DNA of 64,000 bases from Bacteroidales bacterium (GTDB lineage: Bacteria > Bacteroidota > Bacteroidia > Bacteroidales > UBA4417). The notes below the pieces were generated by a model. The model ran no database searches. It saw only the letters and a program-made list of their open reading frames with translations, and was not told the origin of the DNA. A program made the translations under genes and the position numbers. Positions within the stretch are counted from its first letter, which is position 1; each line of letters opens with the position of its first letter. Location of the stretch: positions 779,605 through 843,604 of the forward strand of contig OY782677.1 of assembly GCA_963677975.1 (NCBI GenBank), in the 5' to 3' direction. This document shows, piece after piece, positions 31,336-60,900 of this stretch.

Positions 31336-31509
31336 CCCCTGCCCCCTCTCTTTGAAATAAAGAGAGGGGGTGGCCGGGCATATTTTTGTTATTTCATTCT
31401 AAAAAGTAAAAGAAATCAAGTTAATTCAATCTGGTTTTGAGAGTCACCCACTCTCTTCGGGAAGAGAGGGGGCGAAGAGAGGGGGCTGGGGGGTGAGTTT
31501 TTTATAAAA

Positions 31510-35592: not shown

Positions 35593-35744
35593 TATTTATA
35601 AAGCATTGTTAACATGCCTAGGAAGATACTACGATTTATGATATTGATAATCAGAAACATGTATAAGTGTGTTTATGAATATTAATGTCCCATTATGAAA
35701 TTTGGTATAATCTTTGATCAATATAAGGTATCAAATTTTTCGCC

Positions 35745-36068: not shown

Positions 36069-36434
36069 TTTTGATGACCCAGCGAAACAAGGATTTTATA
36101 CCGGAAATGAAAGTTGGAACAAAATAATCTGAATTATTTATAAGCGTAACACCAGGAGTTTTATAGACACTAAATATAAATCAACAGACTGCAAAGCCCT
36201 CGCATTCTACAGGCTGAATGATCGGGAAAAGCAAAAGCCAGAAACGCTGAAACAGAGATAAATTAAACTTTGCCAAAAACACTCAACTAAAACTGAATTA
36301 CTACCCTAACTGATTGAACCACAAACACACAGCTCATTTTGATTAAAAATTTACTTGGATTTACTACATTAAGTCGTACAAGGCCAAAATTCGAAAACAC
36401 TACCCCGAACTCAAAATCGGGTTTAAAGTGTGAA

Positions 36435-36509
36435 CACAACCCTTCGGAGGTTGTGATCACCCGAATTTATGTGACCCTGCAAGCTTGCGCAATATGTTGC
36501 GCAAGCTTG
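36435..36509 (+). promoter_or_regulatory. Two adjacent stable hairpins in the leader of the giant gene (possible RNA structure, attenuator or operator)
   Basis: CACAACC-CTTCGGA-GGTTGTG (36435-36455, with a UUCG-containing loop) and CAAGCTTGCGCAA-TATG-TTGCGCAAGCTTG (36480-36509, perfect 13-bp arms), followed by TTGTTT. Confidence 0.45.
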
Positions 36510-36952
36510 TTGTTTCCATTATTAATAATTACCAAGCTATTACATAACAGACTGATAGAGCATTTGAGCGACTTTATTTACAGCTCATTTTTTATCACCT
36601 TAGGCTTTACCTTATATTTTCATAGTACTGAAAACATCCTTGCCAAACTGCGGGGTTACAATTCCATTGTTCCGGATATGGCATTTAAAATCTCTGAAAA
36701 GCTGAATCACAGGCTCCTTTCCATACTGCATACTTTTAAATTCTATGCGAATTATTGCCCAAATCCTGATCCCATATTGAACATAACTATTGCTAAAACC
36801 TGAAGGTTGAGGCATGCCCCGATATAATTAAACGAAAAAAAAGCAAAATCACACATAATATTTGCCACATGAAAAAAATATACTTGCAAGTTTCAACCCT
36901 AAGCACCAAGTTGAGCAAGATTATTCCTGAAATCAGTAAAAGCCATTCAATC

Positions 36953-39900
36953 ATGAAAGGAAAAAGAAATGTAGTATTGCTATGCCTGGGAATTATGCTC
37001 ACGCTTGGCACTCTTCAAACGAAAGCGCAGAATGCCAACTATCAATACTTTCTGCCCATTCCTGAGGCCCAGCTGAATGCTGATTTTAAAACAATTTATT
37101 CAGGAACCGGTAATGTTATGACCACAGTAGTATCCATGGTTATAGGGACTACCGGAACCAAAATTTATTACGATAACTGGGAAGATGGGTATGAAGCCAA
37201 TCCAACTTCGCCGGGCCAGGCCAGTACACAGATTTGGGGTGACGGTATTCTCACCAACGGAGTAGCCCCTGGTTATCCCGCCGATATTCTCAACGAAGGA
37301 AGCACAATTGCCTTGCGCAACGATGTTTCGCTTCCGCGTAATCCCTCGGTCATACTTTATGATGGCCGCGATAAGGTAGTTGCAACTCAGGCAATTACAA
37401 TAAGCAAAGCGGGTTGGGCTGTCAGCCCCGGCACAGTACTTGCTTCGTCAGTTGAAGTATACGATTTGAGCATTTATGGTAAGGAATTCCGGAGTACGGT
37501 TGGGGAAACAACCGTCGGTTCCAACAGCATGTTTAATCTTACCTCGCTTATGATCATGGCTTCGGAGAACAACACCCAGATCCAGGTCGATGCCGATGCA
37601 AACGGTTCATACGAAACAACAGTAACCATTCAGCAGGGCGAAAGCTACCTGGTTGCTTCTCCCACCATTGGCGATGTGCTCCAGGGGGCAAAAGTGATTT
37701 CAACCAAACCCGTGCAGGTGAATATTGTAACAGGTCGTATAGGCTCAACATACGAATCCCGGACCTTTGCAGCATACCCTCTCGAATTGTGGGGCCGCAA
37801 CTATTACAATCCCGTTTGCCAGACCAATGCATCGGCCGATGTATATGCTTTCCTTCACAACCCGGGGGCATCTTCAATTACAATTACCTGGACATCTTCT
37901 ACCGGTACAGGTACTTTTCCTGTCGCCGCAGGCGCCACGGAACGGTTTATTATGCCGCTCAACTCGGGGGTTGATTTTACAGCCCCTTCGGGCAGTAAAT
38001 TTTTCGGGGTGGGTGCCAGCGATGCCGATGCAACCAATAACCAAACCTGGGACTGGGGCTATTCCCTGCTTCCCGAAGCCTATCTTACCACTTCGCTTAT
38101 TACTGGCTGGGGACCGGGATCGTCGCAGCTGCCAATACCCCTTGTGAATGGAAGCCCTGTATGGCTTATGTCGCTCGAGGCGACCACAATTTACGTGGAC
38201 TACGATAACAATCCACTTACAGGGGGCTTAACCGACCCTAACGGTGATAAATATGATATCGCATACGCTGTTACCCCGCGCCAGGTAGTGAGGGTTTACG
38301 ACCCCGATAAGGACCAGACAAGCCTTCATGCCTATACCATTAACGGATCAAGGATAATGGGGATATGGGGCGAAGATCCCTCGGTGGCAGGACCTGCCAA
38401 CCCGTACCTCGATATGGGAACCACCGTATTACCCGACCGGAATGTGGAACTGTATAAATCCGCGGTGATTACATACAGTAATGTCATAAAAAATAAAGTG
38501 AGCGAGTTCGATACCGTCACATATACCATCACAATGAAAAATCTGTCTCTCAGGGTGAAGGAATTAAATGCCATGAAAGACACTATCCCTGCAGGCTTTA
38601 CTTATATTGCAGGGACAACAAAATGGAATACCTATACCATACCCGACGATGGAACCGGGACCCCTTTCCCGCTCGACGGAAACGGTTTTTATGTGGGCAG
38701 CTTCGGCCCCAATGCAAACGAAACCTTCACGTTTAAGGTTGTTGCTAATGCGGGAATTACTGCACATCCTACGGTTATAAACACTGTTTGGGTGCAAAGC
38801 AGTTTTGGCGATTTGTGGAAAGCCAGGAAAATACTGCCGGTTAACGTACCCCAGGTTACCGTGTGCACGCTGGGCTTTGTTGATGGTTCCGGTAATCCTG
38901 TAGCTAATTACCAGCCCAATACTTCGGTTTGCCTTAAGGTAACGGATGCTGACAGGAACACCAATACAGCCACTGCCCAGACGGTGACTGCCACCATCAC
39001 CAACAGCACCCAGGGTGAACAGGAAACCGTAACACTGACCGAAACCGGCAATAATACCGGGATTTTCCTGGGATGTATAACTGCCTCTTCATCAGGCGGG
39101 CAGGGCAACCAGAACGGAACCCTCTATGCTATACCGGGCGACAACCTTAATGCCCGTAGCATTGATCCCGTATACGGCGATATATGCGATGCCGCCCAGG
39201 TTGGCATTGCTACTCCTTCGTTTACCAAGCCGCTTTATCTTTCCGATACAACCGGCTTTGCATCCTCGCCGCTATCGCTCGACAGGGTAAAGCCCTGGGA
39301 TGGAACCGAAGCATTAAGTAGCCTGATGGGTACCACTGGCGCAGGAGGACCCGTTGCCTTGTCTGCTACTACGTCCGGCAAAATTAATTTGACCCTCGTT
39401 TCCCCCTATAATTTCACGGTGGCACATACAGTTTCAGGTAGTAATACCCTGTTGATGGTAGCAATTACCCACAATGATCCGACTAATGCTTATAATGTGA
39501 CTGGTGTAACCTGGAATACCTCTCAAACGCTGACACGTTTAGGTTCAAGGTATAACGCCGCGGGGACAAACAATGTGACTGTTGATTTCTGGTATCTCGT
39601 TGCACCTGATGCAGGAGCACATAATGTAGTTGTAACCTTTAATGGTGCTCTCCCCAGGGGAGTTGTAGGTGTAACTTCATTTACAAATGTTGACCAAACC
39701 ACTCCGTTTGGTACCACTGTAACGAATAAAGGCTCTTCAATAAAACCCTCAGTTCCAGTGGCATCAGTCACGAATGAAATGGTACTCGATGCTGTTGGTT
39801 TTTACGATAATACCACCCTTGCAGTAGCTGGTTCTCAAACTCAACAATGGAATGTCGTTGATAATGTTACTAATGCAAATACCTACGATCATGTTGGAGG

Positions 39901-42900
39901 TGGCGGAACTATGGCAGGTGCAGCATCAGATTCAATAAAGTGGACATCATCAGCAAACAACGAATGGGCAATTAGGGCTGTTCGCATTAAACCAAATACT
40001 ATCAGTACCGTTGCTTCAGTTGCTTTTACACAAAATCCAGGTATGTGTTCGGCGTTTACTATACCGGCAAGTGCAGCGATTTCTGCAAGTCTGTATTTAA
40101 CAATTAACACAGGTTCGATGCCAGGTTCGCCATCAATTACGGCAACGGTTACAGCAGGTGCTTCAACCATAGCAACCCTCAATACTGCAAGTTATAGCGG
40201 GGGATTACTTACGTTAAGCGGAACTACCAATGCTGTGACCGTACCAGCCGGAACTCCGGTTGTTTTAACTGTTACCACTGCACAGGCAGGTGTTACTTTC
40301 GTCATTCGTTACGACCACCAGACCTATCCTTCGCGTATCGATCTGCCTGCAACTACAGTTATTACGAACGATGCCCTTAATTTTTACGATGCGGCATACT
40401 CAGGTGGAAATATAGTAGGTGGTGCGCTTACCGGGCAGACTATTTATATACGGGGTACCGCCAGCGATCCCTTCGGTGCAGCCGATATCACGAGCATGAC
40501 ACTTAAAATTACTGACCCTTCTTTAACTACAACCACAATTACCGGCATTCCTGTTGTGAACACCAGCGGCTGCGGCAAGACATTCGAATATGCCTGGACG
40601 GTGCCCAACACTACCGGAACATATACCATCCAGACTATTGCCCGCGAAGGGACCGAAAACAATGTATCCGATACCCTTACAAAAACAATTAATGTAAGCT
40701 TCCAGGATCTTGGGTCGCCCTGCACTATGGCTTTTACCGATAACGCCGGGGCGCCTAAAATCAATTTTGCCCCCAATGCACAAATCTGCGTCCAGATCAG
40801 CGAAGCCGATAAAAATCAACTTTCCGGTACGGCCGAAACTATTACTGCTGTATTAAGTACAGCCCCCGGAGGCGATACCGAATCGGTGACACTTACCGAA
40901 ACAGGTAATAATACTGGTATTTTCAGGGGTTGTATTAACTCGAACAGTACAACCAATAGTTCCGGCGTACTGTATGCCCCGGTTGGAGCAATTATATCGG
41001 CTATCTACACCGACCCGAATGACCCTTCCGATGTTTGTAACGCCAATGCGTATATCAGCGCTCCTGCGCCTGCCGTAACAATTGTTAAATCCATTGTAAC
41101 ACCCAGCGATGGGATAACATTGGTCAATACGGATGTACAGTTCCGGATTATTGTTACAAATCCGGGTACTACCACCCTTACCACAGTTGCCGTGACCGAT
41201 AACTATAATTCCACCTTCCTGGGATATTCGGGGGCAAGCATAATGCCGACTTCTGCCGGTGGAGGTATTATTAGCTGGAGCAATGTAGGCCCGATTTTAC
41301 CGGGAGGAAGTGTAACGATTTATGTAGATTTCTCGGCGCTTGCCACCGTGAATAACACAACAAACAGCGCCAGTGTATCTGCTTCTGATGCAACCCCTAC
41401 AACAGTAACCAGTGGCCCATCCACGGCACTGGTCACAATTACCGACCCGCGGATGACCCTGAGTAAAACACTTACCAGTGGAGGCGGAAATGCCTATTTA
41501 GGGAGTACACTTACATACAGTCTAGTCTTAACAAACACAGGAAACACAGTAATTTCCACGTTGCCCCTAACCGACCAGTATAGTCCTTCATGCATGTCGT
41601 TAACCAGTGCTTCCATTGCACCTGATGCGAATAACGGTGGAATGCTGCTATGGAATAACCTTGGACCTTTGAATCCTACGGCAAGCATTACCATCAACCT
41701 GAGCTACCTGGTAATTGGATCCTGTCCTTCGGTGAACAACAGCGCAGATGTAAGCTATGCGTATGATGTAAATAGCGATCCCGTCCCCCCGGTAAGCAGT
41801 ACAGTTTCGAAGGATATACAGCTGATTCCAGAAGCTGTTAACGATACTGCATATACCACGGTTAATAATGCAGTGATTATCAATGTTCCGGGTAACGACA
41901 CCGATCCGAACGGCAATCTGAACCTGGCAAGTGTAACAACTTCAGGGCTTCTCGCTCCGGCACACGGAACACTTTCAGCTCCTGATGGTACCGGCCATAT
42001 TACCTATACACCAAACTCAGGTTATTCCGGCGTTGACCAGTTCGAATACCGCATTTGCGATAATACATCTCCGCCTTTATGTGATGTAGCCCTTGTAACC
42101 GTGTATATAAACTGTGCGGGCACAAGCGGTAAAAATATCATCAACGGGACCGTCTTTTTAGATTCAAACTTTAATGGGGCTTTGGATAATTCCGAAACTT
42201 CAACGGCTAATGTGAGGGTAGTGCTTTACCAGGATGTTAATTTCAACGGTTCACGCGACGGACTTGATATTAAGATCGATTCTGTTCTTACAACAAATGC
42301 TGCAATTAACTATCAATTCGAATTAGTTAATTCTTCCTGGCCTAAGCAATACCTTGTTTTAACACGGACAAATTCCTATCCGGCAAATTCGGTACTTACC
42401 ACTGATAATATTGAGATAGCGAATTTTGCTGCCCAGAGTACTTCCGATTGCAACAATAATTTCGGCTATGCCCCCGGAGCTGATCTTTCACTTCCTAAAG
42501 ATGTGAATGTTTCACATATCTGCAAAAACGGGAATGTTATATTTACCCTTTCTCTTACCAATTCCGGGCCGGCAACAGCCAACAATGTAGCAGTTAAAGA
42601 TATGCTTCCCTCGGGATTGACCTATGTAGGTTCCATTCCAGGTCAGGGAAGTTATAGCAATGCTACAGGCATCTGGACAGTGGGTTCGGTAACCAGCGGT
42701 ACAACACTGACTTTACAGATCACGGCCCAGGCAACAGGTACAGGTTATATCACAAATACAGCTGAAGTATCTGCCAGCGATCAGTACGACATTGATTCGG
42801 AGGTAAATAACAATAACCCATTGGAAGATGACCAGAATGATGCACAGATTTTGATTTACGATGTACCCGCTGTAACTACAAGTTCGAATTCCCCGGTTTG

Positions 42901-45900
42901 TGTGGGAAGTTCAATCACTTTATCATCGACACCTTCGGGAGGCGCATCTCCCTACACCTTCAGCTGGACAGGTCCTGACGGTTATACCGGCAATACCGAA
43001 GATCCTACTGTATCAGCAAGCGCCACAACCGCGATGGCAGGTACCTATAATTTAATGGTTTCCGATACAAATGGGTGTTCTGCATACAGCAGCACCAGTG
43101 TTGTAGTTGATAACCAGCCGCCGACGGTAACAAGTTGTCCTTCCAATATCAGTCATGCGGTGGATGCCGGAGAATGCAACTATACAGTAAATCCATCAGA
43201 ACCGGTTTTTGCCGACAATTGCAGTGTTACAAGCGTAACATGGGTTATGGCGGGAGCCAACACGGGAAGTGGAAGCATAAGCATAGGCTCGACTGACTTT
43301 CTGACCGGTACAACCACGATAACTTATACTGCGCAGGATGCTGCGGGTAATACAGCGACCTGTTCCTTTACGGTAACAGTGACCGACAACATCAATCCGG
43401 CTATCACCTGCCCATCGAATGTGAGCCAGAATGTAAGCTCGGGATGCGATAAGTCCATAGCCATAACCGATCCGACCTATTCTGACAACTGTTCGGTAAC
43501 AGCATTAACCTGGGCGATGACAGGAGCCACCACGGCAACTTCGGCAGGCACAGGCATCAATGTTGTGGGCACACAAACCTTCAACGTAGGGACTTCCACA
43601 ATAACCTACACAGCGAAAGATGCAGCGAACAATACAGCGACCTGTTCATTTACAGTAACAGTGACCGACAACATCAATCCGGCTATCACCTGCCCATCGA
43701 ATGTGAGCCAGAATGTAAGTTCGGGATGCGATAAATCCATAGCAATAACCGATCCGACGTATTCTGACAACTGTTCGGTAACAGCATTAACCTGGGCGAT
43801 GACAGGAGCCACCACGGCAACTTCGGCAGGCACAGGCATCAATGTTGTGGGCACACAAACCTTCAACGTAGGGACTTCCACAATAACCTACACAGCGAAA
43901 GATGCAGCGAACAATATAGCGACCTGTTCATTTACAGTAACGGTGACCGACAACATCAATCCGGCTATCACCTGCCCATCGAATGTGAGCCAGAATGTAA
44001 GTTCGGGATGCGATAAATCCATAGCAATAACCGATCCGACGTATTCTGACAACTGTTCGGTAACAGCATTAACCTGGGCGATGACAGGAGCCACCACGGC
44101 AGCTTCGGCAGGCACAGGCATCAATGTTGTGGGCACACAAACTTTCAACGTAGGGACTTCCACAATAACCTACACAGCGAAAGATGCAGCGAACAATACA
44201 GCGACCTGTTCATTTACAGTAACGGTGACCGACAACATCAATCCGGCTATCACCTGCCCATCGAATGTGAGCCAGAATGTAAGTTCGGGATGCGATAAAT
44301 CCATAGCCATAACCGATCCGACCTATTCTGACAACTGTTCGGTAACAGCATTAACCTGGGCGATGACAGGAGCCACCACGGCAACTTCGGCAGGCACAGG
44401 CATCAATGTTGTGGGCACACAAACCTTCAACGTAGGGACTTCCACAATAACCTACACAGCGAAAGATGCAGCGAACAATACAGCGACCTGTTCATTTACA
44501 GTAACGGTGACCGACAACATCAATCCGGCTATCACCTGCCCATCGAATGTGAGCCAGAATGTAAGCTCGGGATGCGATAAGTCCATAGCCATAACCGATC
44601 CGACCTATTCTGACAACTGTTCGGTAACAGCATTAACCTGGGCGATGACAGGAGCCACCACGGCAACTTCGGCAGGCACAGGCATCAATGTTGTGGGCAC
44701 ACAAACCTTCAACGTAGGGACTTCCACAATAACCTACACAGCGAAAGATGCAGCGAACAATACAGCGACCTGTTCCTTTACAGTAACGGTGACCGACAAC
44801 ATCAATCCGGCTATCACCTGCCCATCGAATGTGAGCCAGAATGTAAGTTCGGGATGCGATAAATCCATAGCAATAACCGATCCGACGTATTCTGACAACT
44901 GTTCGGTAACAGCATTAACCTGGGCGATGACAGGAGCCACCACGGCAACTTCGGCAGGCACAGGCATCAATGTTGTGGGCACACAAACTTTCAACGTAGG
45001 GACTTCCACAATAACCTACACAGCGAAAGATGCAGCGAACAATACAGCGACCTGTTCATTTACAGTAACGGTGACCGACAACATCAATCCGGCTATCACC
45101 TGCCCATCGAATGTGAGCCAGAATGTAAGTTCGGGATGCGATAAATCCATAGCAATAACCGATCCGACGTATTCTGACAACTGTTCGGTAACAGCATTAA
45201 CCTGGGCGATGACAGGAGCCACCACGGCAACTTCGGCAGGCACAGGCATCAATGTTGTGGGCACACAAACTTTCAACGTAGGGACTTCCACAATAACCTA
45301 CACAGCGAAAGATGCAGCGAACAATATAGCGACCTGTTCCTTTACGGTAACGGTGACCGACAACATCAATCCGGCTATCACCTGCCCATCGAATGTGAGC
45401 CAGAATGTAAGTTCGGGATGCGATAAATCCATAGCAATAACCGATCCGACGTATTCTGACAACTGTTCGGTAACAGCATTAACCTGGGCAATGACAGGTG
45501 CCACCACGGCAACTTCGGCAGGCACAGGCATCAATGTTGTGGGCACACAAACCTTCAACGTAGGGACTTCCACAATAACCTACACAGCGAAAGATGCAGC
45601 GAACAATACAGCGAGCTGTTCATTTACAGTAACGTTGACCGACAACATCAATCCGGCTATCACCTGCCCATCGAATGTGAGCCAGAATGTAAGTTCGGGA
45701 TGCGATAAATCCATAGCAATAACCGATCCGACCTATTCTGACAACTGTTCGGTAACAGCATTAACCTGGGCGATGACAGGAGCCACCACGGCAACTTCGG
45801 CAGGCACAGGCATCAATGTTGTGGGCACACAAACCTTCAACGTAGGGACTTCCACAATAACCTACACAGCGAAAGATGCAGCGAACAATACAGCGACCTG

Positions 45901-48900
45901 TTCATTTACAGTAACAGTGACCGACAACATCAATCCAGCTATCACCTGCCCATCGAATGTGAGCCAGAATGTAAGCTCGGGATGCGATAAATCCATAGCA
46001 ATAACCGATCCGACGTATTCTGACAACTGTTCGGTAACAGCATTAACCTGGGCGATGACAGGAGCCACCACGGCAACTTCGGCAGGCACAGGCATCAATG
46101 TTGTGGGCACACAAACCTTCAACGTAGGGACTTCCACAATAACCTACACAGCGAAAGATGCAGCGAACAATACAGCGACCTGTTCATTTACAGTAACAGT
46201 GACCGACAACATCAATCCGGCTATCACCTGCCCATCGAATGTGAGCCAGAATGTAAGCTCGGGATGCGATAAATCCATAGCAATAACCGATCCGACGTAT
46301 TCTGACAACTGTTCGGTAACAGCATTAACCTGGGCGATGACAGGAGCCACCACGGCAACTTCGTCAGGCACAGGCATCAATGTTGTGGGCACACAAACCT
46401 TCAACGTAGGGACTTCCACAATAACCTACACAGCGAAAGATGCAGCGAACAATACAGCGACCTGTTCATTTACAGTAACAGTGACCGACAACATCAATCC
46501 GGCTATCACCTGCCCATCGAATGTGAGCCAGAATGTAAGTTCGGGATGCGATAAATCCATAGCAATAACCGATCCGACGTATTCTGACAACTGTTCGGTA
46601 ACAGCATTAACCTGGGCGATGACAGGAGCCACCACGGCAACTTCGGCAGGCACAGGCATCAATGTTGTGGGCACACAAACCTTCAACGTAGGGACTTCCA
46701 CAATAACCTACACAGCGAAAGATGCAGCGAACAATACAGCGACCTGTTCATTTACAGTAACGGTGACCGACAACATCAATCCGGCTATCACCTGCCCATC
46801 GAATGTGAGCCAGAATGTAAGTTCGGGATGCGATAAATCCATAGCCATAACCGATCCGACCTATTCTGACAACTGTTCGGTAACAGCATTAACCTGGGCG
46901 ATGACAGGAGCCACCACGGCAACTTCGGCAGGCACAGGCATCAATGTTGTGGGCACACAAACCTTCAACGTAGGGACTTCCACAATAACCTACACAGCGA
47001 AAGATGCAGCGAACAATACAGCGAGCTGTTCATTTACAGTAACAGTGACCGACAACATCAATCCGGCTATCACCTGCCCATCGAATGTGAGCCAGAATGT
47101 AAGTTCGGGATGCGATAAATCCATAGCAATAACCGATCCGACGTATTCTGACAACTGTTCGGTAACAGCATTAACCTGGGCGATGACAGGAGCCACCACG
47201 GCAACTTCGGCAGGCACAGGCATCAATGTTGTGGGCACACAAACTTTCAACGTAGGGACTTCCACAATAACCTACACAGCGAAAGATGCAGCGAACAATA
47301 CAGCGACCTGTTCATTTACAGTAACGGTGACCGACAACATCAATCCGGCTATCACCTGCCCATCGAATGTGAGCCAGAATGTAAGTTCGGGATGCGATAA
47401 ATCCATAGCAATAACCGATCCGACGTATTCTGACAACTGTTCGGTAACAGCATTAACCTGGGCGATGACAGGAGCCACCACGGCAACTTCGGCAGGCACA
47501 GGCATCAATGTTGTGGGCACACAAACCTTCAACGTAGGGACTTCCACAATAACCTACACAGCGAAAGATGCAGCGAACAATACAGCGAGCTGTTCCTTTA
47601 CGGTAACAGTGACTGACAACATCTCACCGAATATCAGCGACTGCGGGCTCAACCTGAGTGCGAATGCCAACGGCAGTTGCCAGGCAGCAGTACCTAATTT
47701 CACCACGGCAGTAGTAGCAACGGATAACTGTACGGCGAGCGGATCGCTGACCATTACCCAGAGCCCGGCGGCAACAACGCTTGTAGGCGCGGGAGTAACC
47801 ACAGTAACAATTTCCGTTGCGGATGCAGTGGGGAACACCTCTACCTGTTCGCGCACTTTTACGGTAACGGATAATGATCCTCCTGTTTTTGACTGCGGGA
47901 CCTTAACGACAGTAAGTTTAACGACGAATCCATCGACAGGATGTACGAATGATACAGATGTAACGCCACCAGTAGCAACAGATAACTGCGATACTCCGAT
48001 CACAGGGGTAGGCACGCGCAGCGATGCAGCAGCGATTAATGCAGCATGGCCGTTAGGCACCACCACAATTACCTGGACCTTCACCGATGCAGCTGGCAAC
48101 ACTACCACCTGTTCACAGAATGTAACGGTAACGGATAATGATCCTCCTGTTTTTGATTGCGGCACCTTAACGACAGTAACCTTAACGACGAATCCATCGA
48201 CGGGCTGTACGAACGACACAGATGTCACTCCTCCGGTCGCCACCGATAACTGCGACACACCGATTACGGGCGTTGGCACGCGCAACGATGCAGCAGCGAT
48301 TAATGCAGCATGGCCGTTAGGCACAACCACAATCACCTGGACATTTACAGATGCAGCGGGCAACAGTACGACCTGTTCCCAGAATGTTACGGTAACAGAT
48401 AATGATCCTCCTGTTTTTGACTGCGGGACCTTAACGACAGTAAGTTTAACGACGAATCCATCGACAGGATGTACGAATGATACAGATGTCACTCCTCCGG
48501 TCGCTACAGATAACTGCGACACGCCGATTACGGGCGTTGGCATGCGCAGCGACGCAGCAGGTATCAATTCGCCATGGACATTAGGCACCACAACGATCAC
48601 CTGGACCTTCACCGATGCAGCTGGCAACACTACCACCTGTTCACAGAATGTAACGGTAACGGATAATGATCCTCCTGTTTTTGATTGCGGCACCTTAACG
48701 ACAGTAAGTTTAACGACGAATCCATCGACGGGCTGTACGAACGACACAGATGTCACTCCTCCGGTCGCCACCGATAACTGCGACACACCGATTACGGGCG
48801 TTGGCACGCGCAGCGATGCAGCTGGTATCAATTCGCCATGGACATTAGGCACCACAACGATCACCTGGACCTTCACCGATGCAGCTGGCAACACTACCAC

Positions 48901-51900
48901 CTGTTCACAGAATGTAACGGTAACGGATAATGATCCTCCTGTTTTTGATTGCGGCACCTTAACGACAGTAGCCTTAACAACGAATCCATCAACAGGCTGT
49001 ACGAACGACACAGATGTCACTCCTCCGGTCGCCACCGATAACTGCGACACACCGATTACGGGCGTTGGAACGCGCAGCGACGCAGCTGGTATCAATTCGC
49101 CATGGACATTAGGCACCACAACGATCACCTGGACCTTTACCGATGCAGCGGGCAACAGTACGACCTGTTCACAGAATGTTACGGTAACGGATAATGATCC
49201 TCCAGTTTTTGATTGCGGCACCTTAACGACAGTAAGTTTAACGACGAATCCATCGACAGGATGTACGAATGATACAGATGTCACTCCTCCGGTCGCAACA
49301 GATAACTGCGACACGCCGATTACGGGCGTTGGAACGCGCAGCGACGCAGCTGGTATCAATTCGCCATGGACATTAGGCACCACAACGATCACCTGGACCT
49401 TTACCGATGCAGCGGGCAACAGTACGACCTGTTCACAGAATGTTACGGTAACGGATAATGATCCTCCTGTTTTTGACTGCGGGACTTTAACGACAGTAAG
49501 TTTAACGACGAATCCATCGACAGGATGTATGAATGATACAGATGTAACGCCGCCAGTCGCAACAGATAACTGCGATACCCCGATCACAGGGGTAGGCACG
49601 CGCAGCGATGCAGCAGCGATTAATGCAGCATGGCCGTTAGGCACCACCACAATCACCTGGACATTTACAGATGCAGCGGGCAACAGTACGACCTGTTCCC
49701 AGAATGTTACGGTAACGGATAATGATCCGCCAACAGTTGCCACCTGTCCCTCAAATATTTTGATAAATAATGAGCCTGGTATTTGTGGAGCTCATGTTAC
49801 ATATACACTTCCCACCTTTAATGATAACTGTGCCGGAAGCGGACTAACAGGGACACTTACAGCTGGCCAGGTATCAGGATCATTATTCCCCACCGGAACT
49901 ACGACTGTAACATATGAATATACAGATCCTTCAGGGAATGGTCCAGCTATCTGCAGTTTTACCGTTGTGGTAAAACCATGTGCCGATTTGACTATCACTA
50001 AAACAGACGGTACCGCCACCTATACCCCGGGAACAACCACAACCTACACTATTGTAGCCACTAATAATGGCCCGAGCAGTATAACCGGAGGCACCATATC
50101 GGATGCCATTCCATCGGGCACTACCTGGATTTTTACAGCCGTTGGCACAGGTGGAGCCACAGGCTTCACAAGCGGACCAGCAAACACAGCCATCAACGAT
50201 GTGGTGAACATGCCAAGCAGCAGTACAATTACTTATACGGTTGTAGTAACAATTCCAACAGGAAGAACCGGTAACCTGGTAAATACGGCTACAATCACTC
50301 CTCCCGCCGGAGTAGCGGATCCAACACCTGCTAACAATAATGCCGTAGATACAGATGTGCAGAACAGCATTGCCGATCTGAGAATCACCAAGACAGATGG
50401 TACTGCAACCTATACCCCCGGAACAACCACTACTTATACGATAGTTGCTACGAACAATGGCCCCAGCACGGTTATTGGTGCCACCATATCAGATGCAATC
50501 CCAGCTGGGACGACCTGGAGTTATACCGCAAGTTCTACCGGCTTAGCCACTGGTTTCACAGCTGGTCCAGCCACCACAGACATCAACGATGTTGTGAACA
50601 TGCCGGGTGGTAGTACTATTACCTATACTGTGGTAGTAACAATCCCATCGGGACAAACAGGTGACCTGGTAAATACTGCCACGATAGCAGTTCCGGTAGG
50701 AGTAACTGATCCTACACCAGGCAACAATAACGCAACAGATACCGATACAAAGAACAGCAAGGCTGACCTGAGCATAACCAAGACTGACGGGATCGGAACT
50801 TATATTCCAGGTACCACAACTACTTATATGATTGTTGTTACTAACAATGGTCCTAGTGATGTAACGGGAGCCACTGTAGCTGATGCCATTCCATCGGGTA
50901 CAACGTGGATTTATACAAGCAGCGCCGCAGGCGGGGCAACAGGCTATACACCAGGACCAGCCATTACTGCCATAAGCGATGTAGTAAATATGCCTGCCGG
51001 AAGCACTGTCACTTATAGCGTTGTTGTAACTATTCCTTCAGGACGAACCGGGAATCTGATAAATACGGCAACGGTCACAGCTCCTGTGGGTATACCTGAT
51101 CCGAACCCGGGCAACAACAGTGCAACAGACATCGACGCACAAAATAGTACAGCAGACCTGAGTATCACCAAGACGGATGGAATCGGAACTTATATTCCTG
51201 GCACTACGACCACCTACACGATCGTTGTCACTAATAGCGGTCCAAGTTATGTAACGGGAGCCACAATTTCGGATGCCATCCCATCAGGTACTACCTGGAG
51301 TTATACGGCAAGCGGTACAGGAGGAGCTACAGGCTTCACAACCGGTACAGGCACTGCTGCTATCAACAATACCGTAAACATGCCAGTTGGCAGCACGATC
51401 ACGTATATTGTAACAGTGACTATTCCTTCAGGCCGAACAGGAGACTTGGTCAATACGGCAACTGTCACCGCACCTGGAGGAGTTACAGATCCGACCCCGG
51501 GCAATAACAGTGCTACAGATACAGACACAAAAAACAGTGTCGCGGACCTGAGCATCACCAAGACGGACGGCAATGCTACTTATATCCCCGGTACTACGAC
51601 TACATACACGATCGTAGCCACAAATAATGGTCCAAGTAATGTAACGGGAGCTACCATTGCGGATGCTATCCCATCAGGCACGACATGGAGTTATACCGCA
51701 AGCGCTACCGGCGGAGCCACAGGCTTCACTGCCGGTCCGGCCACCACAGCCATCAACAATATAGTGAACATGCCTAGCGGTAGCAAGATTACATATACAG
51801 TTGTAGTAACAATTCCGTCAGGACGAACAGGTAACCTGGTGAATACTGCAACGGTGACCACACCTGTCGGTGTAACTGATCCGACCCCGGGCAATAACAG

Positions 51901-54900
51901 CGCTACGGATACTGACACTCAGAACAGTATAGCAGACCTGAGAATTACTAAGACAGATGGCCATGCTACCTATGTTCCCGGTACCACGACTACATACACA
52001 ATAGTAGCCACCAATACTGGTCCAAGCAATGTAACCGGAGCCTCAATTGCGGATGCCATTCCATCGGGCACAACATGGAGTTATTCGGCCAGCGCTACAG
52101 GTGGAGCCACAGGCTTCACAGCCGGACCAGCAACCAATGCTATTAGTGATGTTGTGAACATGCCAGGCGGCAGCACAATCACTTATACGGTTGTAGTTAC
52201 AATTCCATCAGGACGAACAGGCAATCTCGTGAATACGGCTTCAATTGTTGCTCCTGTTGGAGTGACGGACCCGACCCCAGGCAACAACAGTGCTACGGAT
52301 ACTGACACGCAGAACAGTATTGCTGACCTGAGAATTACTAAGACTGACGGAATTACTATTTATATCCCCGGTACCACGACCACATACACTATAGTGGCAA
52401 CTAACAATGGTCCGAGTAATGTAATAGGAGCCACCATATCGGATGCCATCCCCTCAGGAACAACCTGGAGTTATACAGCAAGCGCTACAGGCGGAGCTAC
52501 AGGCGTCACAGCCGGACCATCCACTACAGCTATCAGTGATGTAGTGAATATGCCAGGCGGCAGCACAATCACCTACATAGTGGTGCTTACGATTCCATCA
52601 GGACAAACAGGTGCCCTGATAAATACTGCTACGATTACTGTGCCGGGAGGAGTAACAGATCCTACACCTGGCAATAATACCGCAACCGATACCGATGTAC
52701 CTATGTCAAGTGCAGATCTTGTCACGGTCAAGACGGACGGCAACGCTACCTATACAGCAGGCACGAATGTGGTTTACACAGTAACGGTTACCAACAACGG
52801 ACCTAGCGATGCTGTGAATGTACTTGTAGCCGACAATGCCCCTTCGGGCACGGCCATCACAGGCTGGACGTCAAGCGGCACCGGCGCCACCCCGCCGAAT
52901 GCGAGCGGCATCGGCAACCTGTCAGAGACGGTCTTGAGCATGCCTAACGGCAGCAGTGTGACCTATACGATCACCGTAAGTGTACCTTCCGACTATACGG
53001 GCAACCTGGTAAATACGGCCACGGTAAGCAGCCCGACCCCGGATCCTGATCCGACATGCCCGGCATGTACCGATACGGACACCCCGAGCCCAAGCGCCAA
53101 CCTGGTGACGGTCAAAACGGACGGTAGTGCTACCTATACAGCAGGCACGAATGTGGTTTACACGGTAACGGTTACCAACAACGGACCTAGCGATGCTGTG
53201 AATGTACTTGTAGCCGACAATGCCCCAGCGGGCACGGCTATCACAGGCTGGACGGCAAGCGGCACAGGCGCCACCCCACCGAATGCGAGCGGCAGCGGTA
53301 ACCTGTCAGAGACGGTACCCGGCATGCCTAACGGCAGCAGTGTCACCTATACGATCACCGTAAGTGTACCTTCCGACTATACAGGCAACCTGGTAAATAC
53401 GGCCACGGTAAGCAGCCCGACCCCGGATCCGGATCCGACATGCCCGGCATGTACCGATACGGACACCCCGAGCCCAAGCGCCAACCTGGTGACGGTCAAG
53501 ACGGACGGTAGTGCTACCTATACAGCAGGCACGAATGTGGTTTACACGGTAACGGTTACCAACAACGGACCTAGCGATGCTGTGAATGTACTTGTAGCCG
53601 ACAATGCCCCAGCGGGCACGGCTATCACAGGCTGGACGGCAAGCGGCACCGGCGCCACCCCACCGAATGCGAGCGGCAGCGGCAACCTGTCAGAGACGGT
53701 ACCCGGCATGCCTAACGGCAGCAGTGTCACCTATACGATCACCGTAAGTGTACCTTCCGACTATACGGGCAACCTGGTAAATACGGCCACGGTAAGCAGC
53801 CCGACCCCGGATCCGGATCCGACATGCCCGGCATGTACCGATACGGACACCCCGAGCCCAAGCGCCAACCTGGTGACGGTCAAGACGGACGGTAGTGCTA
53901 CCTATACAGCAGGCACGAATGTGGTTTACACGGTAACGGTTACCAACAACGGACCTAGCGATGCTGTGAATGTACTTGTAGCCGACAATGCCCCAGCGGG
54001 CACGGCTATCACAGGCTGGACGGCAAGCGGCACAGGCGCCACCCCGCCGAATGCGAGCGGCAGCGGCAACCTGTCAGAGACGGTACCCGGCATGCCTAAC
54101 GGCAGCAGTGTGACCTATACGATCACCGTAAGTGTACCTTCCGACTATACGGGCAACCTGGTAAATACGGCCACGGTAAGCAGCCCGACCCCGGATCCTG
54201 ATCCGACATGCCCGGCATGTACCGATACGGACACCCCGAGCCCAAGCGCCAACCTGGTGACGGTCAAGACGGACGGCAATTCCACCTACACCGCAGGCAC
54301 GAATGTGGTTTACACGGTAACGGTTACCAACAACGGACCTAGCGATGCTGTGAATGTACTTGTAGCCGACAATGCCCCTTCGGGCACGGCCATCACAGGC
54401 TGGACGGCAAGCGGCACCGGCGCCACCCCACCGAATGCGAGCGGCAGCGGTAACCTGTCAGAGACGGTACCCGGCATGCCTAACGGCAGCAGTGTCACCT
54501 ATACGATCACCGTAAGTGTACCTTCCGACTATACAGGCAACCTGGTAAATACGGCCACGGTAAGCAGCCCGACCCCGGATCCGGATCCGACATGCCCGGC
54601 ATGTACCGATACGGACACCCCGAGCCCAAGCGCCAACCTGGTGACGGTCAAGACGGACGGTAGTGCTACCTATACAGCAGGCACGAATGTGGTTTACACG
54701 GTAACGGTTACCAACAACGGACCTAGCGATGCTGTGAATGTACTTGTAGCCGACAATGCCCCAGCGGGCACGGCTATCACAGGCTGGACGGCAAGCGGCA
54801 CCGGCGCCACCCCACCGAATGCGAGCGGCAGCGGCAACCTGTCAGAGACGGTACCCGGCATGCCTAACGGCAGCAGTGTCACCTATACGATCACCGTAAG

Positions 54901-57900
54901 TGTACCTTCCGACTATACGGGCAACCTGGTAAATACGGCCACGGTAAGCAGCCCGACCCCGGATCCGGATCCGACATGCCCGGCATGTACCGATACGGAC
55001 ACCCCGAGCCCAAGCGCCAACCTGGTGACGGTCAAGACGGACGGTAGTGCTACCTATACAGCAGGCACGAATGTGGTTTACACGGTAACGGTTACCAACA
55101 ACGGACCTAGCGATGCTGTGAATGTACTTGTAGCCGACAATGCCCCAGCGGGCACGGCTATCACAGGCTGGACGGCAAGCGGCACAGGCGCCACCCCGCC
55201 GAATGCGAGCGGCAGCGGCAACCTGTCAGAGACGGTACCCGGCATGCCTAACGGCAGCAGTGTCACCTATACGATCACCGTAAGTGTACCTTCCGACTAT
55301 ACGGGCAACCTGGTAAATACGGCCACGGTAAGCAGCCCGACCCCGGATCCTGATCCGACATGCCCGGCATGTACCGATACGGACACCCCGAGCCCAAGCG
55401 CCAACCTGGTGACGGTCAAGACGGACGGCAATTCCACCTACACCGCAGGCACGAATGTGGTTTACACGGTAACGGTTACCAACAACGGACCTAGCGATGC
55501 TGTGAATGTACTTGTAGCCGACAATGCCCCTTCGGGCACGGCCATCACAGGCTGGACGGCAAGCGGCACCGGCGCCACCCCACCGAATGCGAGCGGCAGC
55601 GGTAACCTGTCAGAGACGGTACCCGGCATGCCTAACGGCAGCAGTGTCACCTATACGATCACCGTAAGTGTACCTTCCGACTATACAGGCAACCTGGTAA
55701 ATACGGCCACGGTAAGCAGCCCGACCCCGGATCCGGATCCGACATGCCCGGCATGTACCGATACGGACACCCCGAGCCCAAGCGCCAACCTGGTGACGGT
55801 CAAGACGGACGGTAGTGCTACCTACACTGCAGGCACGAATGTGGTTTACACGGTAACGGTTACCAACAACGGACCTAGCGATGCTGTGAATGTACTTGTA
55901 GCCGACAATGCCCCTTCGGGCACGGCCATCACAGGCTGGACGGCAAGCGGCACAGGCGCCACCCCGCCGAATGCGAGCGGCATCGGCAACCTGTCAGAGA
56001 CGGTCTTGAGCATGCCTAACGGCAGCAGTGTGACCTATACGATCACCGTAAGCGTACCTTCCGACTATACGGGCAACCTGGTAAATACGGCCACGGTAAG
56101 CAGCCCGACCCCGGATCCTGATCCGACATGCCCGGCATGTACCGATACGGACACCCCGAGCCCAAGCGCCAACCTGGTGACGGTCAAAACGGACGGTAGT
56201 GCTACCTATACAGCAGGCACGAATGTGGTTTACACGGTAACGGTTACCAACAACGGACCTAGCGATGCTGTGAATGTACTTGTAGCCGACAATGCCCCAG
56301 CGGGCACGGCTATCACAGGCTGGACGGCAAGCGGCACAGGCGCCACCCCACCGAATGCGAGCGGCAGCGGCAACCTGTCAGAGACGGTCTTGAGCATGCC
56401 TAACGGCAGCAGTGTGACCTATACGATCACCGTAAGTGTACCTTCCGACTATACGGGCAACCTGGTAAATACGGCCACGGTAAGCAGCCCGACCCCGGAT
56501 CCTGATCCGACATGCCCGGCATGTACCGATACGGACACCCCGAGCCCAAGCGCCAACCTGGTGACGGTCAAGACGGACGGCAATGCCACCTACACTGCAG
56601 GCACGAATGTGGTTTACACGGTAACGGTTACCAACAACGGACCTAGCGATGCTGTGAATGTACTTGTAGCCGACAATGCCCCTTCGGGCACGGCCATCAC
56701 AGGCTGGACGTCAAGCGGCACCGGCGCCACCCCGCCGAATGCGAGCGGCATCGGCAACCTGTCAGAGACGGTCTTGAGCATGCCTAACGGCAGCAGTGTG
56801 ACCTATACGATCACCGTAAGTGTACCTTCCGACTATACGGGCAACCTGGTAAATACGGCCACGGTAAGCAGCCCGACCCCGGATCCTGATCCGACATGCC
56901 CGGCATGTACCGATACGGACACCCCGAGCCCAAGCGCCAACCTGGTGACGGTCAAGACGGACGGTAGTGCTACCTATACAGCAGGCACGAATGTGGTTTA
57001 CACGGTAACGGTTACCAACAACGGACCTAGCGATGCTGTGAATGTACTTGTAGCCGACAATGCCCCTTCGGGCACGGCCATCACAGGCTGGACGGCAAGC
57101 GGCACCGGCGCCACCCCACCGAATGCGAGCGGCAGCGGTAACCTGTCAGAGACGGTACCCGGCATGCCTAACGGCAGCAGTGTCACCTATACGATCACCG
57201 TAAGTGTACCTTCCGACTATACAGGCAACCTGGTAAATACGGCCACGGTAAGCAGCCCGACCCCGGATCCGGATCCGACATGCCCGGCATGTACCGATAC
57301 GGACACCCCGAGCCCAAGCGCCAACCTGGTGACGGTCAAGACGGACGGCAATGCCACCTACACTGCAGGCACGAATGTGGTTTACACGGTAACGGTTACC
57401 AACAACGGACCTAGCGATGCTGTGAATGTACTTGTAGCCGACAATGCCCCTTCGGGCACGGCCATCACAGGCTGGACGTCAAGCGGCACCGGCGCCACCC
57501 CGCCGAATGCGAGCGGCATCGGCAACCTGTCAGAGACGGTCTTGAGCATGCCTAACGGCAGCAGTGTGACCTATACGATCACCGTAAGCGTGCCTTCAAA
57601 CTATACGGGCAACCTGGTAAATACGGCCACGGTAAGCAGCCCGACCCCGGATCCTGATCCGACATGCCCGGCATGTACCGATACGGACACCCCGAGCCCA
57701 AGCGCCAACCTGGTGACGGTCAAGACGGACGGCAATTCCACCTACACCGCAGGCACGAATGTGGTTTACACGGTAACGGTTACCAACAACGGACCTAGCG
57801 ATGCTGTGAATGTACTTGTAGCCGACAATGCCCCAGCGGGCACGGCCATCACAGGCTGGACGGCAAGCGGCACCGGCGCCACCCCACCGAATGCGAGCGG

Positions 57901-60900
57901 CAGCGGTAACCTGTCAGAGACGGTACCCGGCATGCCTAACGGCAGCAGTGTCACCTATACGATCACCGTAAGTGTACCTTCCGACTATACGGGCAACCTG
58001 GTAAATACGGCCACGGTAAGCAGCCCGACTCCGGATCCTGATCCGACATGCCCGGCATGTACCGATACGGACACCCCGAGCCCAAGCGCCAACCTGGTGA
58101 CGGTCAAGACGGACGGCAATGCCACCTACACTGCAGGCACGAATGTGGTTTACACGGTAACGGTTACCAACAACGGACCTAGCGATGCTGTGAATGTACT
58201 TGTAGCCGACAATGCCCCTTCGGGCACGGCTATCACAGGCTGGACGTCAAGCGGCACCGGCGCCACCCCACCGAATGCGAGCGGCATCGGCAACCTGTCA
58301 GAGACGGTACCCGGCATGCCTAACGGCAGCAGTGTCACCTATACGATCACCGTAAGCGTGCCTTCAAACTATACGGGCAACCTGGTAAATACGGCCACGG
58401 TAAGCAGCCCGACTCCGGATCCTGATCCGACATGCCCGGCATGTACCGATACGGACACCCCGAGCCCAAGCGCCAACCTGGTGACGGTCAAGACGGACGG
58501 CAATGCCACCTACACCGCAGGCACGAATGTGGTTTACACGGTAACGGTTACCAACAACGGACCTAGCGATGCTGTGAATGTACTTGTAGCCGACAATGCC
58601 CCTTCGGGCACGGCTATCACAGGCTGGACGGCAAGCGGCACAGGCGCCACCCCACCGAATGCGAGCGGCATCGGCAACCTGTCAGAGACGGTACCCGGCA
58701 TGCCTAACGGCAGCAGTGTCACCTATACGATCACCGTAAGTGTACCTTCCGACTATACGGGCAACCTGGTAAATACGGCCACGGTAAGCAGCCCGACCCC
58801 GGATCCGGATCCGACATGCCCGGCATGTACCGATACGGACACCCCGAGCCCAAGCGCCAACCTGGTGACGGTCAAGACGGACGGTAGTGCTACCTATACA
58901 GCAGGCACGAATGTGGTTTACACGGTAACGGTTACCAACAACGGACCTAGCGATGCTGTGAATGTACTTGTAGCCGACAATGCCCCTTCGGGCACGGCTA
59001 TCACAGGCTGGACGGCAAGCGGCACAGGCGCCACCCCACCGAATGCAAGCGGCAGCGGCAACCTGTCAGAGACGGTACCCGGCATGCCTAACGGCAGCAG
59101 TGTCACCTATACGATCACCGTAAGTGTACCTTCCGACTATACGGGCAACCTGGTAAATACGGCCACGGTAAGCAGCCCGACCCCGGATCCGGATCCGACA
59201 TGCCCGGCATGTACCGATACGGACACCCCGAGCCCAAGCGCCAACCTGGTGACGGTCAAGACGGACGGCAATGCCACCTACACTGCAGGCACGAATGTGG
59301 TTTACACGGTAACGGTTACCAACAACGGACCTAGCGATGCTGTGAATGTACTTGTAGCCGACAATGCCCCTTCGGGCACGGCCATCACAGGCTGGACGTC
59401 AAGCGGCACCGGCGCCACCCCGCCGAATGCGAGCGGCATCGGCAACCTGTCAGAGACGGTCTTGAGCATGCCTAACGGCAGCAGTGTGACCTATACGATC
59501 ACCGTAAGTGTACCTTCCGACTATACGGGCAACCTGGTAAATACGGCCACGGTAAGCAGCCCGACCCCGGATCCGGATCCGACATGCCCGGCATGTACCG
59601 ATACGGACACCCCGAGCCCAAGCGCCAACCTGGTGACGGTCAAGACGGACGGTAGTGCTACCTATACAGCAGGCACGAATGTGGTTTACACAGTAACGGT
59701 TACCAACAACGGACCTAGCGATGCTGTGAATGTACTTGTAGCCGACAATGCCCCAGCGGGCACGGCTATCACAGGCTGGACGGCAAGCGGCACCGGCGCC
59801 ACCCCACCAAATGCGAGCGGCAGCGGCAACCTGTCAGAGACGGTACCCGGCATGCCTAACGGCAGCAGTGTCACCTATACGATCACCGTAAGTGTACCTT
59901 CCGACTATACTGGCAACCTGGTAAATACGGCCACGGTAAGCAGCCCGACCCCGGATCCGGATCCGACATGCCCGGCATGTACCGATACGGATCAAAATTA
60001 TTCTTTAACAGTTGTAAAAACTCAGACCTCGGGACCAAATCCAGTAACTGCAGCAGGGCAATTACTAACATATAGTATTGTAATAACCAATTCTGGAACA
60101 ATTAACCAGACCGGATTAGTACCGACGGAGATCTATCCTGGTGCAGGCACAGGCACTTTGAGCGCAGCGACTGAAAGCATTAGCACGAATGGCATTCTGA
60201 ATGTCGGGGAGACCTGGACTTACATAGCTACTTACACTACCACTCAGGCGGATGTAGATGCAGCTATACCGCTTATTAACACGATCAGTGTGGTAACAAA
60301 TGAAATGCCCAGCCCGACTACGGATACGGAAACGACTCCGGTCATATCAACTCCTGTTATATCACTTACCAAAACAGCTGACGATGTAAGCGATGTAACC
60401 TTAGGCCAGACGATCACTTATACTTATGTTATAACCAACACAGGTAATGTAACGATGAGCAATGTGAGTGTTTCAGACGTGATCAACGTAGGAACAGGCA
60501 CACTGAGTTCGATATCCCCTACCAGTGTTGCAAGCCTTGCAGTTGGAGCAAGTACGAGCTTCACGGCCACTTATATAGTGACACAGGCAGACGTTAACCA
60601 CCAGGTGAATATTACCAATACCGCTACAGCCACTGCTTACAACGGAGCGACACCATATACAGCTACCGACAACGAAAGTGTTGATGTTACCGATTTACCA
60701 ACAGCTGTAACAGATACCTATACCACAACGGAAGACACACCTATAACGCTCTTACCGTTAACCGGTGACAGCGATCCTGACGGCGGTACCCTGTCGATTA
60801 CCTCGATCAACGGAGTGACCCTGACCCCGGGCACAGCGCAGACGATCCCTGTAACCAACGGAACGGTAAGTATCACAGCAGGCGGGGTCATAACCTTTAC

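Follow-up and report, generated by a model that had tools for sequence, protein, structure and literature searches.

Architecture of the giant gene

The window, i.e. the whole stretch of 64,000 nucleotides that was analysed, ends within a giant gene on the + strand, whose 5′ 27 kb (36953..64000) begin with an ATG at 36953 and stay open through the window end; the ORF scan of the window finds this frame free of stops from 36797 to 64000. In the gene call on ENA ERZ21831265 ctg82123l, the start of which is position 36953 of the window, the product has 13,906 aa. About 4,900 of these residues, at the C-terminus, fall beyond the window end, and the secretion/anchor region likewise lies outside the window. 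The N-terminus, MKGKRNVVLLCLGIMLTLGTLQTKA followed by Q (36953..37030, + strand), is by its translation a probable Sec signal peptide, with the cleavage site placed by eye, and the Gln after this site agrees with the Bacteroidetes 'Q-rule' as set out in PMC5837995. A Pfam domain scan of the N-terminal 2,000 residues identified no adhesive 'head' domain. The giant protein would be a secreted surface protein of an uncultured Bacteroidota bacterium.

Five separate repeat arrays of different ages, named A to E and all read on the + strand, lie within the gene. Array A (43381..47610), delimited by unit cutting and alignment, consists of 15 tandem 282-bp units with one 94-aa HYR domain each. Array B (47859..49728) has seven HYR_4C units of 264 bp that are ~90% identical, and array C (50045..52695) is an old array of ~6.8 DUF11 units of 390 bp that are 74% identical; both were defined by repeat, Pfam, and codon analysis. 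Array D (52724..59991), defined by repeat and codon analysis, contains 18.9 DUF11 units of 384 bp with 96.8% identity and a GC content of 0.60. Array E (60697..64000) contains at least 10.5 Big_9/cadherin-like ('tandem-95') units of 315 bp with 97.7% identity, and continues past the window end.

Geometry and flanks of array A

The first-pass annotation had described array A as 15 HYR-type units at exact 282-bp spacing, and both Tandem Repeats Finder and unit cutting confirm this. The former reports a single array at 43314–47623 with a period of 282, 15.3 copies, 98% matches, and 0% indels. When cut from 43381, the 15 units differ from unit 5 (u5 when counted from u0, the first unit) at 0–6 bases each and contain no indels, compared to 166 and 191 of 282 bases for the neighbouring units on either side. 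The mean identity among the units is 98.4% in DNA and 98.8% in protein (minimum 96.8%), with 14 distinct DNA units and seven distinct protein units; unit 5 has the same sequence as unit 13, and eight of the 15 protein units are the same. The copy number of 15 comes from one metagenome assembly. The assignment to HYR also holds, as Pfam HYR (PF02494) matches four stretches in window:43097-44225 well above the gathering threshold (154.5 bits against a cut-off of 21.7 bits, E = 1e-45).

Diverged HYR and HYR_4C domains were found by Pfam on both sides of the array. The upstream one (43109..43396, + strand; Pfam HYR stretch 4–95 of window:43097-44225) is of the same 94-aa subtype and shares 60% amino acid identity with the array unit. 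Its 3′ tail (43314-43380, + strand) is an incomplete copy that opens the array, with 81% identity from column 215. Within the last 32 nt of this tail, mismatches to the array consensus are confined to columns 267, 273, and 279, where the tail carries C, G, and A, which are the minor alleles of array A at these columns. All three minor alleles occur in the last unit, u14; u0, u4, u6, u8, u9, u10, and u12 each carry one of them. Their presence in a diverged flank indicates that the alleles are old and have since been redistributed. At the other end, the first 13 bases of a 16th copy (47611..47623, + strand; from the end coordinate of Tandem Repeats Finder and the alignment) mark where DNA similarity stops, and the next domain (47627..47858, + strand; Pfam HYR/HYR_4C hits) belongs to another subtype with 39% amino acid identity to the array unit. 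The suggestion that the array was seeded from its flanking units can thus be kept at most for the upstream unit, which shares subtype, 60% identity, and minor alleles with the array, and not for the downstream one. Units in the proteins of other organisms (62–75.5% identity) are nearer to the array A unit than either flank.

Variation within the array is mostly silent

Array A has 16 variable columns, every one biallelic. Eleven, none of which alters the amino acid in the + frame, fall at codon position 3, the codon pairs being CCG/CCA, AGC/AGT, AAG/AAA, GCC/GCA, ACC/ACG, GCG/GCA, GGA/GGT, ACC/ACT, TCA/TCC, and, twice, ACA/ACG. The other five are conservative replacements (T→A, A→S, T→I, T→S, and V→L). 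Tabulating the 15-unit alignment by codon position therefore bears out the earlier description of mostly third-position, synonymous differences, including every codon pair and replacement it had listed: the changes are not evenly spread, and 11/16 exceeds both the one-third expected for position 3 (P = 0.004) and the 25% synonymous share expected from random substitutions on the consensus (P = 3e-4). The spectrum comprises nine transitions and seven transversions, with no adenine specificity.

That the + frame is the coding frame, as had been proposed, is supported by its being the sole open frame, by the HYR Pfam hits, and by a very confident beta-sandwich model. Antisense coding was rejected, since all antisense frames are interrupted within array A, and in the other five frames just 1–7 of the 16 columns would be synonymous. 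Mean pairwise pS is 0.049 and pN 0.0047, giving dS ~0.05 and dN/dS ~0.09, in support of purifying selection on recently homogenised copies. Near-identity extends to the silent sites, a sign of recent copying beyond protein constraint alone.

The same silent-site signature is present in the four other arrays. Codon position 3 accounts for 43 of 53 variable columns in array B (dS 0.41, dN/dS 0.06), 22 of 31 in array D (dN/dS 0.15), and 18 of 21 in array E (dN/dS 0.03); in array C, dS reaches 1.5 with a dN/dS of 0.085.

Predicted fold of the units

An AlphaFold2 model of two units (pLDDT 97.7, pTM 0.82) is all-beta, with about eight strands per unit and no helices, and on this model the array A units are predicted to be tandem Ig-like beta-sandwiches. 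For a model of two domains, a pTM of 0.82 suggests that they are arranged in a defined way relative to each other. The best PDB matches in Foldseek are the cadherin-like modules of SraP, Aureispira GhpA, an RTX adhesin extender, and cadherins. SraP of Staphylococcus aureus (PDB 4m00/4m03) is the best match among solved structures in both sequence and fold, and it too is an adhesin with a tandem pair of beta-sandwich modules; however, the identity is 24–28% and the TM-score 0.44–0.53, and SraP has two cadherin-like modules and not an array of identical ones. The fold and the architecture of the gene would fit array A as part of the stalk of a fibrillar adhesin.

Relatives of the array

Among 185,579 species-representative genomes, no close relative of the segment just upstream of the array was found, the best match having 55% identity over part of the query. 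Identical copies of two flanking proteins were found on the source contig, on a 12-kb k-mer contig that stops at the array, and on a second large contig of 5.64 Mb. In a protein search with a 382-aa query, the matches were all 222–668 aa long, and the 13,906-aa protein was not among them. Arrays of the same HYR subtype occur on two unrelated metagenome contigs, with the same signature. Arrays of this subtype in other metagenome contigs (P0001/L026, P0003/L027, P0002, and P0018) share with array A a 94–95-aa HYR unit with 62–75.5% protein identity to the array A unit, the dominance of third-position differences (35/54 and 32/43 columns), and the presence of chimeric units, one unit of P0001 being visibly chimeric between its two unit types. 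They differ in having 285-bp units, one codon longer than the 282 bp here, ~7 and at least 29 copies, 92–94.5% identity between copies, and indels and frameshifts in the contigs, for which reason the units of L026 and L027 were cut by anchors.

Exchange of sequence between copies

Ten of the 16 variant states are found in more than one unit and mostly in units that are not neighbours, as the first-pass annotation had noticed, and six columns are singletons. The four-gamete test proposed there was positive for 22 of 45 informative site pairs. The minimum number of recombination events (Rm) is at least 3 (3–4) whichever of the 282 unit phases is chosen, and the largest mutually compatible set holds four of the ten informative sites. 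The 41 departures from consensus sit on 16 columns, while the minimum in 20,000 simulations was 22, so this sharing of variants cannot come from independent mutation. Since the distribution of variants fits no single tree, we conclude that the copies of array A have exchanged sequence.

Adjacent units are not closer to each other than distant ones (P = 0.41). A higher-order repeat or block duplication was considered and rejected on the same adjacency value and on the best lag (8), which gave P = 0.11. Several four-gamete pairs are merely 6–19 bp apart, which implies very short exchange tracts, some recurrent mutation, or mixing of strains in the consensus. Concerted evolution, which had also been suggested, agrees with a dS of 0.05 within the array against 39–60% protein identity to the flanks and 62–75.5% to the units of other organisms; array A shows it in its non-tree-like variants and in the alleles shared with its flank, with a strain-chimeric assembly as a caveat.

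Origin and maintenance of the array

Our preferred explanation, to which we give a probability of about 80%, is that the 15 near-identical HYR domains are a stretch of the stalk of a giant adhesin, and that sequence exchange among the copies, with selection at the protein level, keeps them alike. At ~98.4% identity and with a length of whole codons, the units could align out of register when the DNA is replicated or recombines. Whole domains would then be gained or lost in frame through unequal crossing-over or slippage, and gene conversion or chimeric crossover products would move patches of sequence from unit to unit. Copying of such patches would produce concerted evolution together with a small set of old variants scattered over non-adjacent units, and selection on the folded domain would purge most amino acid changes and leave mainly synonymous variation. 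We infer the recombination mechanism itself, as well as length variation between cells or strains, the location at the surface, and the role as a stalk.

A single recent amplification burst, followed by independent point mutations under selection with no later exchange, could account for the very low divergence (dS 0.05) and for the six singleton columns, and the nested pattern at columns 72, 81, and 96 might reflect a genealogy of duplications. The burst is, however, largely refuted by the four-gamete and compatibility results: ten of the 16 variants are shared, the concentration of departures on 16 columns lies below the simulated minimum of 22, only four of ten informative sites are compatible with Rm at least 3, and the minor alleles at 267, 273, and 279 are already present in the diverged flank. 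We therefore consider a burst very unlikely. The earlier proposal of gene conversion in place of one burst stands in its second half, as the four-gamete test, the compatibility of sites, and the simulations all contradict the burst; the first half is too specific, because unequal crossing-over also yields chimeric units and conversion is inseparable from it here, and a consensus chimeric between strains could also contribute to the mosaic. Targeted diversification of a ligand-binding repeat, by a diversity-generating retroelement or other hypermutation, has in its favour just that a surface protein has variable repeats. With 11 of 16 changes silent, conservative replacements, a mixed spectrum that is not adenine-specific, and no evident pair of template and variable region, we regard it as extremely improbable.

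More weight should be given to an artefact of metagenome assembly behind the mosaic and perhaps also the copy number, in which the unit haplotypes or copy numbers of co-existing strains were merged or polished into a chimeric consensus, although we still think it unlikely. The sequence comes from a metagenome contig of 3.0 Mb (ENA ERZ21831265 ctg82123l). A k-mer assembly of ERR12015701 is 100% identical to the window from 31420 and ends at 43402, 22 nt into unit 0, which means that long reads are needed to resolve the array, and four-gamete pairs 6–7 bp apart would arise more easily from mixed haplotypes. On the other hand, the frame is intact without indels across 4.2 kb, random errors would not cluster at third codon positions, and the same pattern is found in independent contigs. 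The array is also shorter than typical long reads, the contig being taken for a long-read assembly solely from its size and name. Even in a chimeric consensus the variants would be real alleles of this array, and hence both the excess of synonymous changes and the shared alleles would stand.

Comparison with known surface proteins

Array A is a clear but unremarkable case of a kind of repeat already known, the near-identical stalk repeats of Periscope-type fibrillar adhesins. Periscope Proteins are surface proteins of variable length with highly identical tandem stalk domains, and include the SHIRT domains of Sgo_0707, SasG/Aap, Rib, Esp, and CdrA (Whelan et al. 2021, PMC8201768; review PMC9704523). 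The high DNA identity of their stalk repeats has been put forward as the property that enables recombination within the gene and variation in length (PMC8201768, PMC9704523). The product of the gene described here resembles them as a single chain with a signal peptide and long arrays of individually folding beta-sandwich domains, both signal and fold being predicted here, as well as in repeats that are 97–100% identical in protein and ~98% in DNA, so that near-identical neighbours break the usual rule of divergence between adjacent domains. It differs in several respects: the HYR domain is absent from the main text of PMC8201768, the host is an uncultured environmental Bacteroidota bacterium and not a pathogen, and five arrays of different ages make up a far larger protein (13,906 aa). 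The behaviour that defines Periscope Proteins, length variation from strain to strain, is a prediction for this gene.

The protein also shares its vocabulary of HYR, DUF11, and cadherin-like/Big_9 domains with the fibrillar adhesins and giant type IX cargo of Bacteroidota. Homologues are annotated as 'HYR domain-containing protein', and C-terminal sorting domains of type IX secretion (Por_Secre_tail, PF18962/TIGR04183, or type B, PF13585/TIGR04131) are common among them, with PF13585 or PF18962 in 32 of the 120 HYR homologues listed. Annotations of such giant proteins also include 'gliding motility-associated-like protein'. Fragments of Aureispira GhpA (9fly/9fls/9flp) are among the best structural matches to the array A units. 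The C-terminal region in which the present protein would carry such a sorting domain is outside the window.

With this gene, the HYR-domain arrays of environmental Bacteroidota join the surface-protein stalks made of near-identical repeats. The understanding of how such repeats evolve is unchanged by array A. Because the silent-site signature holds in all five arrays and in homologous arrays elsewhere, the gene is a good annotated example and a target for long-read study of repeat-number variation in natural populations.

A bolder reading is that exchange proceeds by unusually short tracts, that an ancestral haplotype is preserved at both ends of the array, in the tail of unit –1 and in unit 14, with a homogenised interior between them, and that exchange is GC-biased across the gene; we hold this to be unlikely. 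If it is true, the giant repeat genes of long-read metagenomes would offer a natural record of how long conversion tracts are, and of GC-biased gene conversion, in uncultured bacteria. Allele frequencies gave no support for GC-biased conversion, with G/C the major allele at just 7/13, 21/39, 15/27, and 11/19 weak/strong sites. Third-position GC is 0.51–0.66 in the three most recently homogenised arrays, compared to 0.39–0.48 in the old arrays and unique parts, as would be expected if exchange between repeats is GC-biased.

Unit geometry and codon-position bias in array A

Tandem Repeats Finder places array A, the run of HYR units (u0–u14) on the + strand of the giant adhesin-like gene, at 43314–47623, with a period of 282 and 15.3 copies that match at 98% and are free of indels. 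When units were cut from 43381, the 15 copies differed from unit 5, used as the reference, by 0–6 bases, compared with 166 and 191 bases for the adjoining 282-bp blocks, confirming the array of 15 units of 282 bp (43381–47610) reported in the first-pass annotation. These units contain 16 variable columns, biallelic throughout, among which are all the codon pairs and replacements listed in that annotation. Tabulated by codon position in the + frame, 11 of the 16 fall at position 3 and all 11 are synonymous; the remainder (three at position 1, two at position 2) give five conservative replacements, T48A, A50S, T80I, T82S and V89L. The excess holds both for position 3 (11/16 against one third, P=0.004) and for synonymous changes (11/16 against the 25% expected from random substitutions on the consensus, P=3e-4), while in the other five frames the number of silent changes among the 16 would be only 1–7. 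The earlier assignment of the + frame as coding is therefore borne out, and the core of the first-pass interpretation is supported.

Averaged over all pairs of the 15 units, pS is 0.049 and pN 0.0047, giving a dN/dS of 0.09. As silent sites are 95% identical, the likeness of the units reflects recent copying and not protein constraint alone, and the shortage of replacements indicates purifying selection since copying, as had been proposed. There are 14 distinct units in DNA and seven in protein, with eight of the 15 identical as protein. Copy number and haplotype order come from a single metagenome assembly. A contig from a k-mer assembly of run ERR12015701 (Logan ERR12015701_28857) matches 31420–43402 at 100%, which independently confirms the upstream sequence, and stops 22 nt inside unit 0, the first full unit; this break right at the array shows that array A is not resolvable without long reads.

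Exchange between copies

Variants at 10 of the 16 columns occur in at least two units. The 41 departures from consensus are confined to 16 columns, whereas simulations of independent hits always gave at least 22, even with 60 target sites and a single alternative base. All four gametes are present in 22 of 45 informative-site pairs, the Hudson–Kaplan minimum is 3–4 events in every one of the 282 unit phases, and the largest set of informative sites fitting one tree is four of 10. Neighbours in the array are not closer to each other than to units farther away (P=0.41), units 5 and 13 have the same sequence, and no higher-order period in the array was significant (P=0.11). The last 32 nt of the upstream flanking HYR unit mismatch the array consensus at only three columns, 267, 273 and 279, where the flank carries C, G and A, the minor alleles of array A. 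The final unit, u14, combines all three, and they are found singly in u0, u4, u6, u8, u9, u10 and u12. They are therefore old alleles that were redistributed and not recurrent new mutations, having either persisted at the edges of the array or passed between it and the flank.

These data support concerted evolution with exchange between units. Gene conversion, the mechanism named in the first-pass annotation, is not established, since chimeric units arise from unequal crossing-over as well and the two are inseparable here. Some four-gamete pairs are separated by only 6–19 bp. Explaining them would take exchange tracts that are very short, a degree of recurrent mutation, or a metagenome consensus in which haplotypes of different strains were mixed.

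The proposal that the diverged HYR units on both sides are seed copies is not established, and would hold at most for the upstream one. The upstream flank, of the same 94-aa 'TW.M.GA' subtype, shares 60% protein identity with the array A unit, a value inflated by the common tail, and is a possible sister copy. This does not hold for the downstream flank (39%); identity to array B units is 45% and to the last HYR 41%. Units in proteins from other metagenomes are closer than the flanks (62–75.5%), so the subtype is an old lineage found in arrays of several organisms.

The giant gene and its five arrays

The + frame is free of stops from 36797 to the window end, and the ATG at 36953 starts a signal-like peptide, MKGKRNVVLLCLGIMLTLGTLQTKA/Q. 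The window lies within contig ctg82123l (3.0 Mb) of ENA ERZ21831265, on which a gene call begins at that ATG and gives a product of 13,906 aa, whose C-terminus falls beyond the window end. The unique N-terminal 2,000 residues contain DUF11, Big_9 and cadherin-like domains (Pfam, NCBIfam), and are followed by five tandem arrays: A (HYR, 15 × 282 bp, 98.4% DNA identity), B (HYR_4C, 7 × 264 bp, 90%), C (DUF11, ~6.8 × 390 bp, 74%), D (DUF11, 18.9 × 384 bp, 96.8%) and E (Big_9/'tandem-95', at least 10.5 × 315 bp, 97.7%). Variation is dominated by third positions in all five, with dN/dS of 0.03–0.15 and dS of 0.05–1.5, a spread that makes array A the youngest of an intragenic age series and nothing special.

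Array D (52724–59991, 7.3 kb) is bigger than array A, as mosaic in its variants (203 of 351 pairs with four gametes), and has a GC of 0.60 against ~0.43–0.45 in the neighbourhood. Over 36953–64000, third-position GC climbs with recency of array homogenisation, from 0.44 in the unique N-terminus and 0.41 in the old array C to 0.48 (B), 0.51 (A), 0.60 (E) and 0.66 (D); neighbouring genes have 0.40–0.50. No GC bias was seen in allele frequencies at weak/strong sites, and biased conversion, a different origin and codon choice are all candidate causes of the trend. An antisense ORF of 729 aa (47554–49743, minus strand) covers array B completely and extends 57 nt into array A. As 43 of the 53 variable columns in array B lie at + frame third positions, this ORF seems to be a side effect of a repeat without stops and not a gene.

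Homologues, predicted fold and likeness to Periscope Proteins

A protein search at E≤1e-10 matched 753 HYR proteins, with 56–69% identity across the aligned region for the nearest ones. Many of them are annotated as HYR domain-containing or gliding motility-associated-like, and type IX secretion C-terminal domains are found in 32 of the best 120. Two homologues on unrelated metagenome contigs, P0001 (L026) and P0003 (L027), themselves sit in arrays, the first with at least 29 units, each of 285 bp, and the second with 7–8 units. Cut at anchors, these arrays have 35 of 54 and 32 of 43 variable columns, respectively, at position 3, and one P0001 unit can be seen to be chimeric between the two unit types present there. 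The signature is therefore a habit of the family. The JGI metagenome contig L026 consists almost wholly of HYR units over 1728–9983, with off-length spacings of 176, 283, 288, 289, 295 and 364 bp where gene calls are broken; the cause may be errors of assembly, or genuine frameshifts or pseudogenisation.

AlphaFold2 with 50 homologues predicted an all-beta fold for two consecutive units (pLDDT 97.7, pTM 0.82). In the PDB it best matches the tandem cadherin-like modules of SraP, a staphylococcal adhesin, together with fragments of GhpA, the grappling-hook protein of Aureispira, the extender region of an RTX adhesin, and tandem cadherin or Ig domains. By analogy, array A would be a stalk segment. 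An Ig-like domain contributes roughly 4 nm, and 15 units would add about 60 nm.

Periscope Proteins are defined as surface proteins of a single chain that carry tandem domains of high identity (Whelan et al., PMC8201768; review PMC9704523), whose high DNA identity is proposed to permit intragenic recombination and repeat gain or loss (PMC8201768, PMC9704523). The giant gene shares such repeats and has a probable signal peptide, although a rod shape is only suggested. It probably works like a Periscope-type stalk and, as read in one strain, is a probable, not proven, member of the class. HYR is absent from the main text of the 2021 Periscope paper (PMC8201768). Array A is a tidy case of a known phenomenon, in which the host and domain type are new.

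Other features of the window

Directly upstream of the giant gene, 32634–36068 encodes a sigma-54-dependent activator of 743 aa with a PAS domain and a small, 107-aa ABM-domain protein, a pair that could have a regulatory connection with the giant gene. Two neighbouring DUF559 (PF04480) genes on the minus strand (30352–30789 and 30898–31335) have the same length, each being a 145-aa ORF in the window and a 138-aa gene call on the source contig, and represent a local tandem duplication. ORFs at 18513–20926 (minus strand) are bracketed by two short 23-nt repeat arrays (18417–18472 and 21065–21156), whose consensus units, by eye, are possibly mutually reverse-complementary. Finally, three window proteins recur with identical sequence on a second contig (5,640,860 bp).
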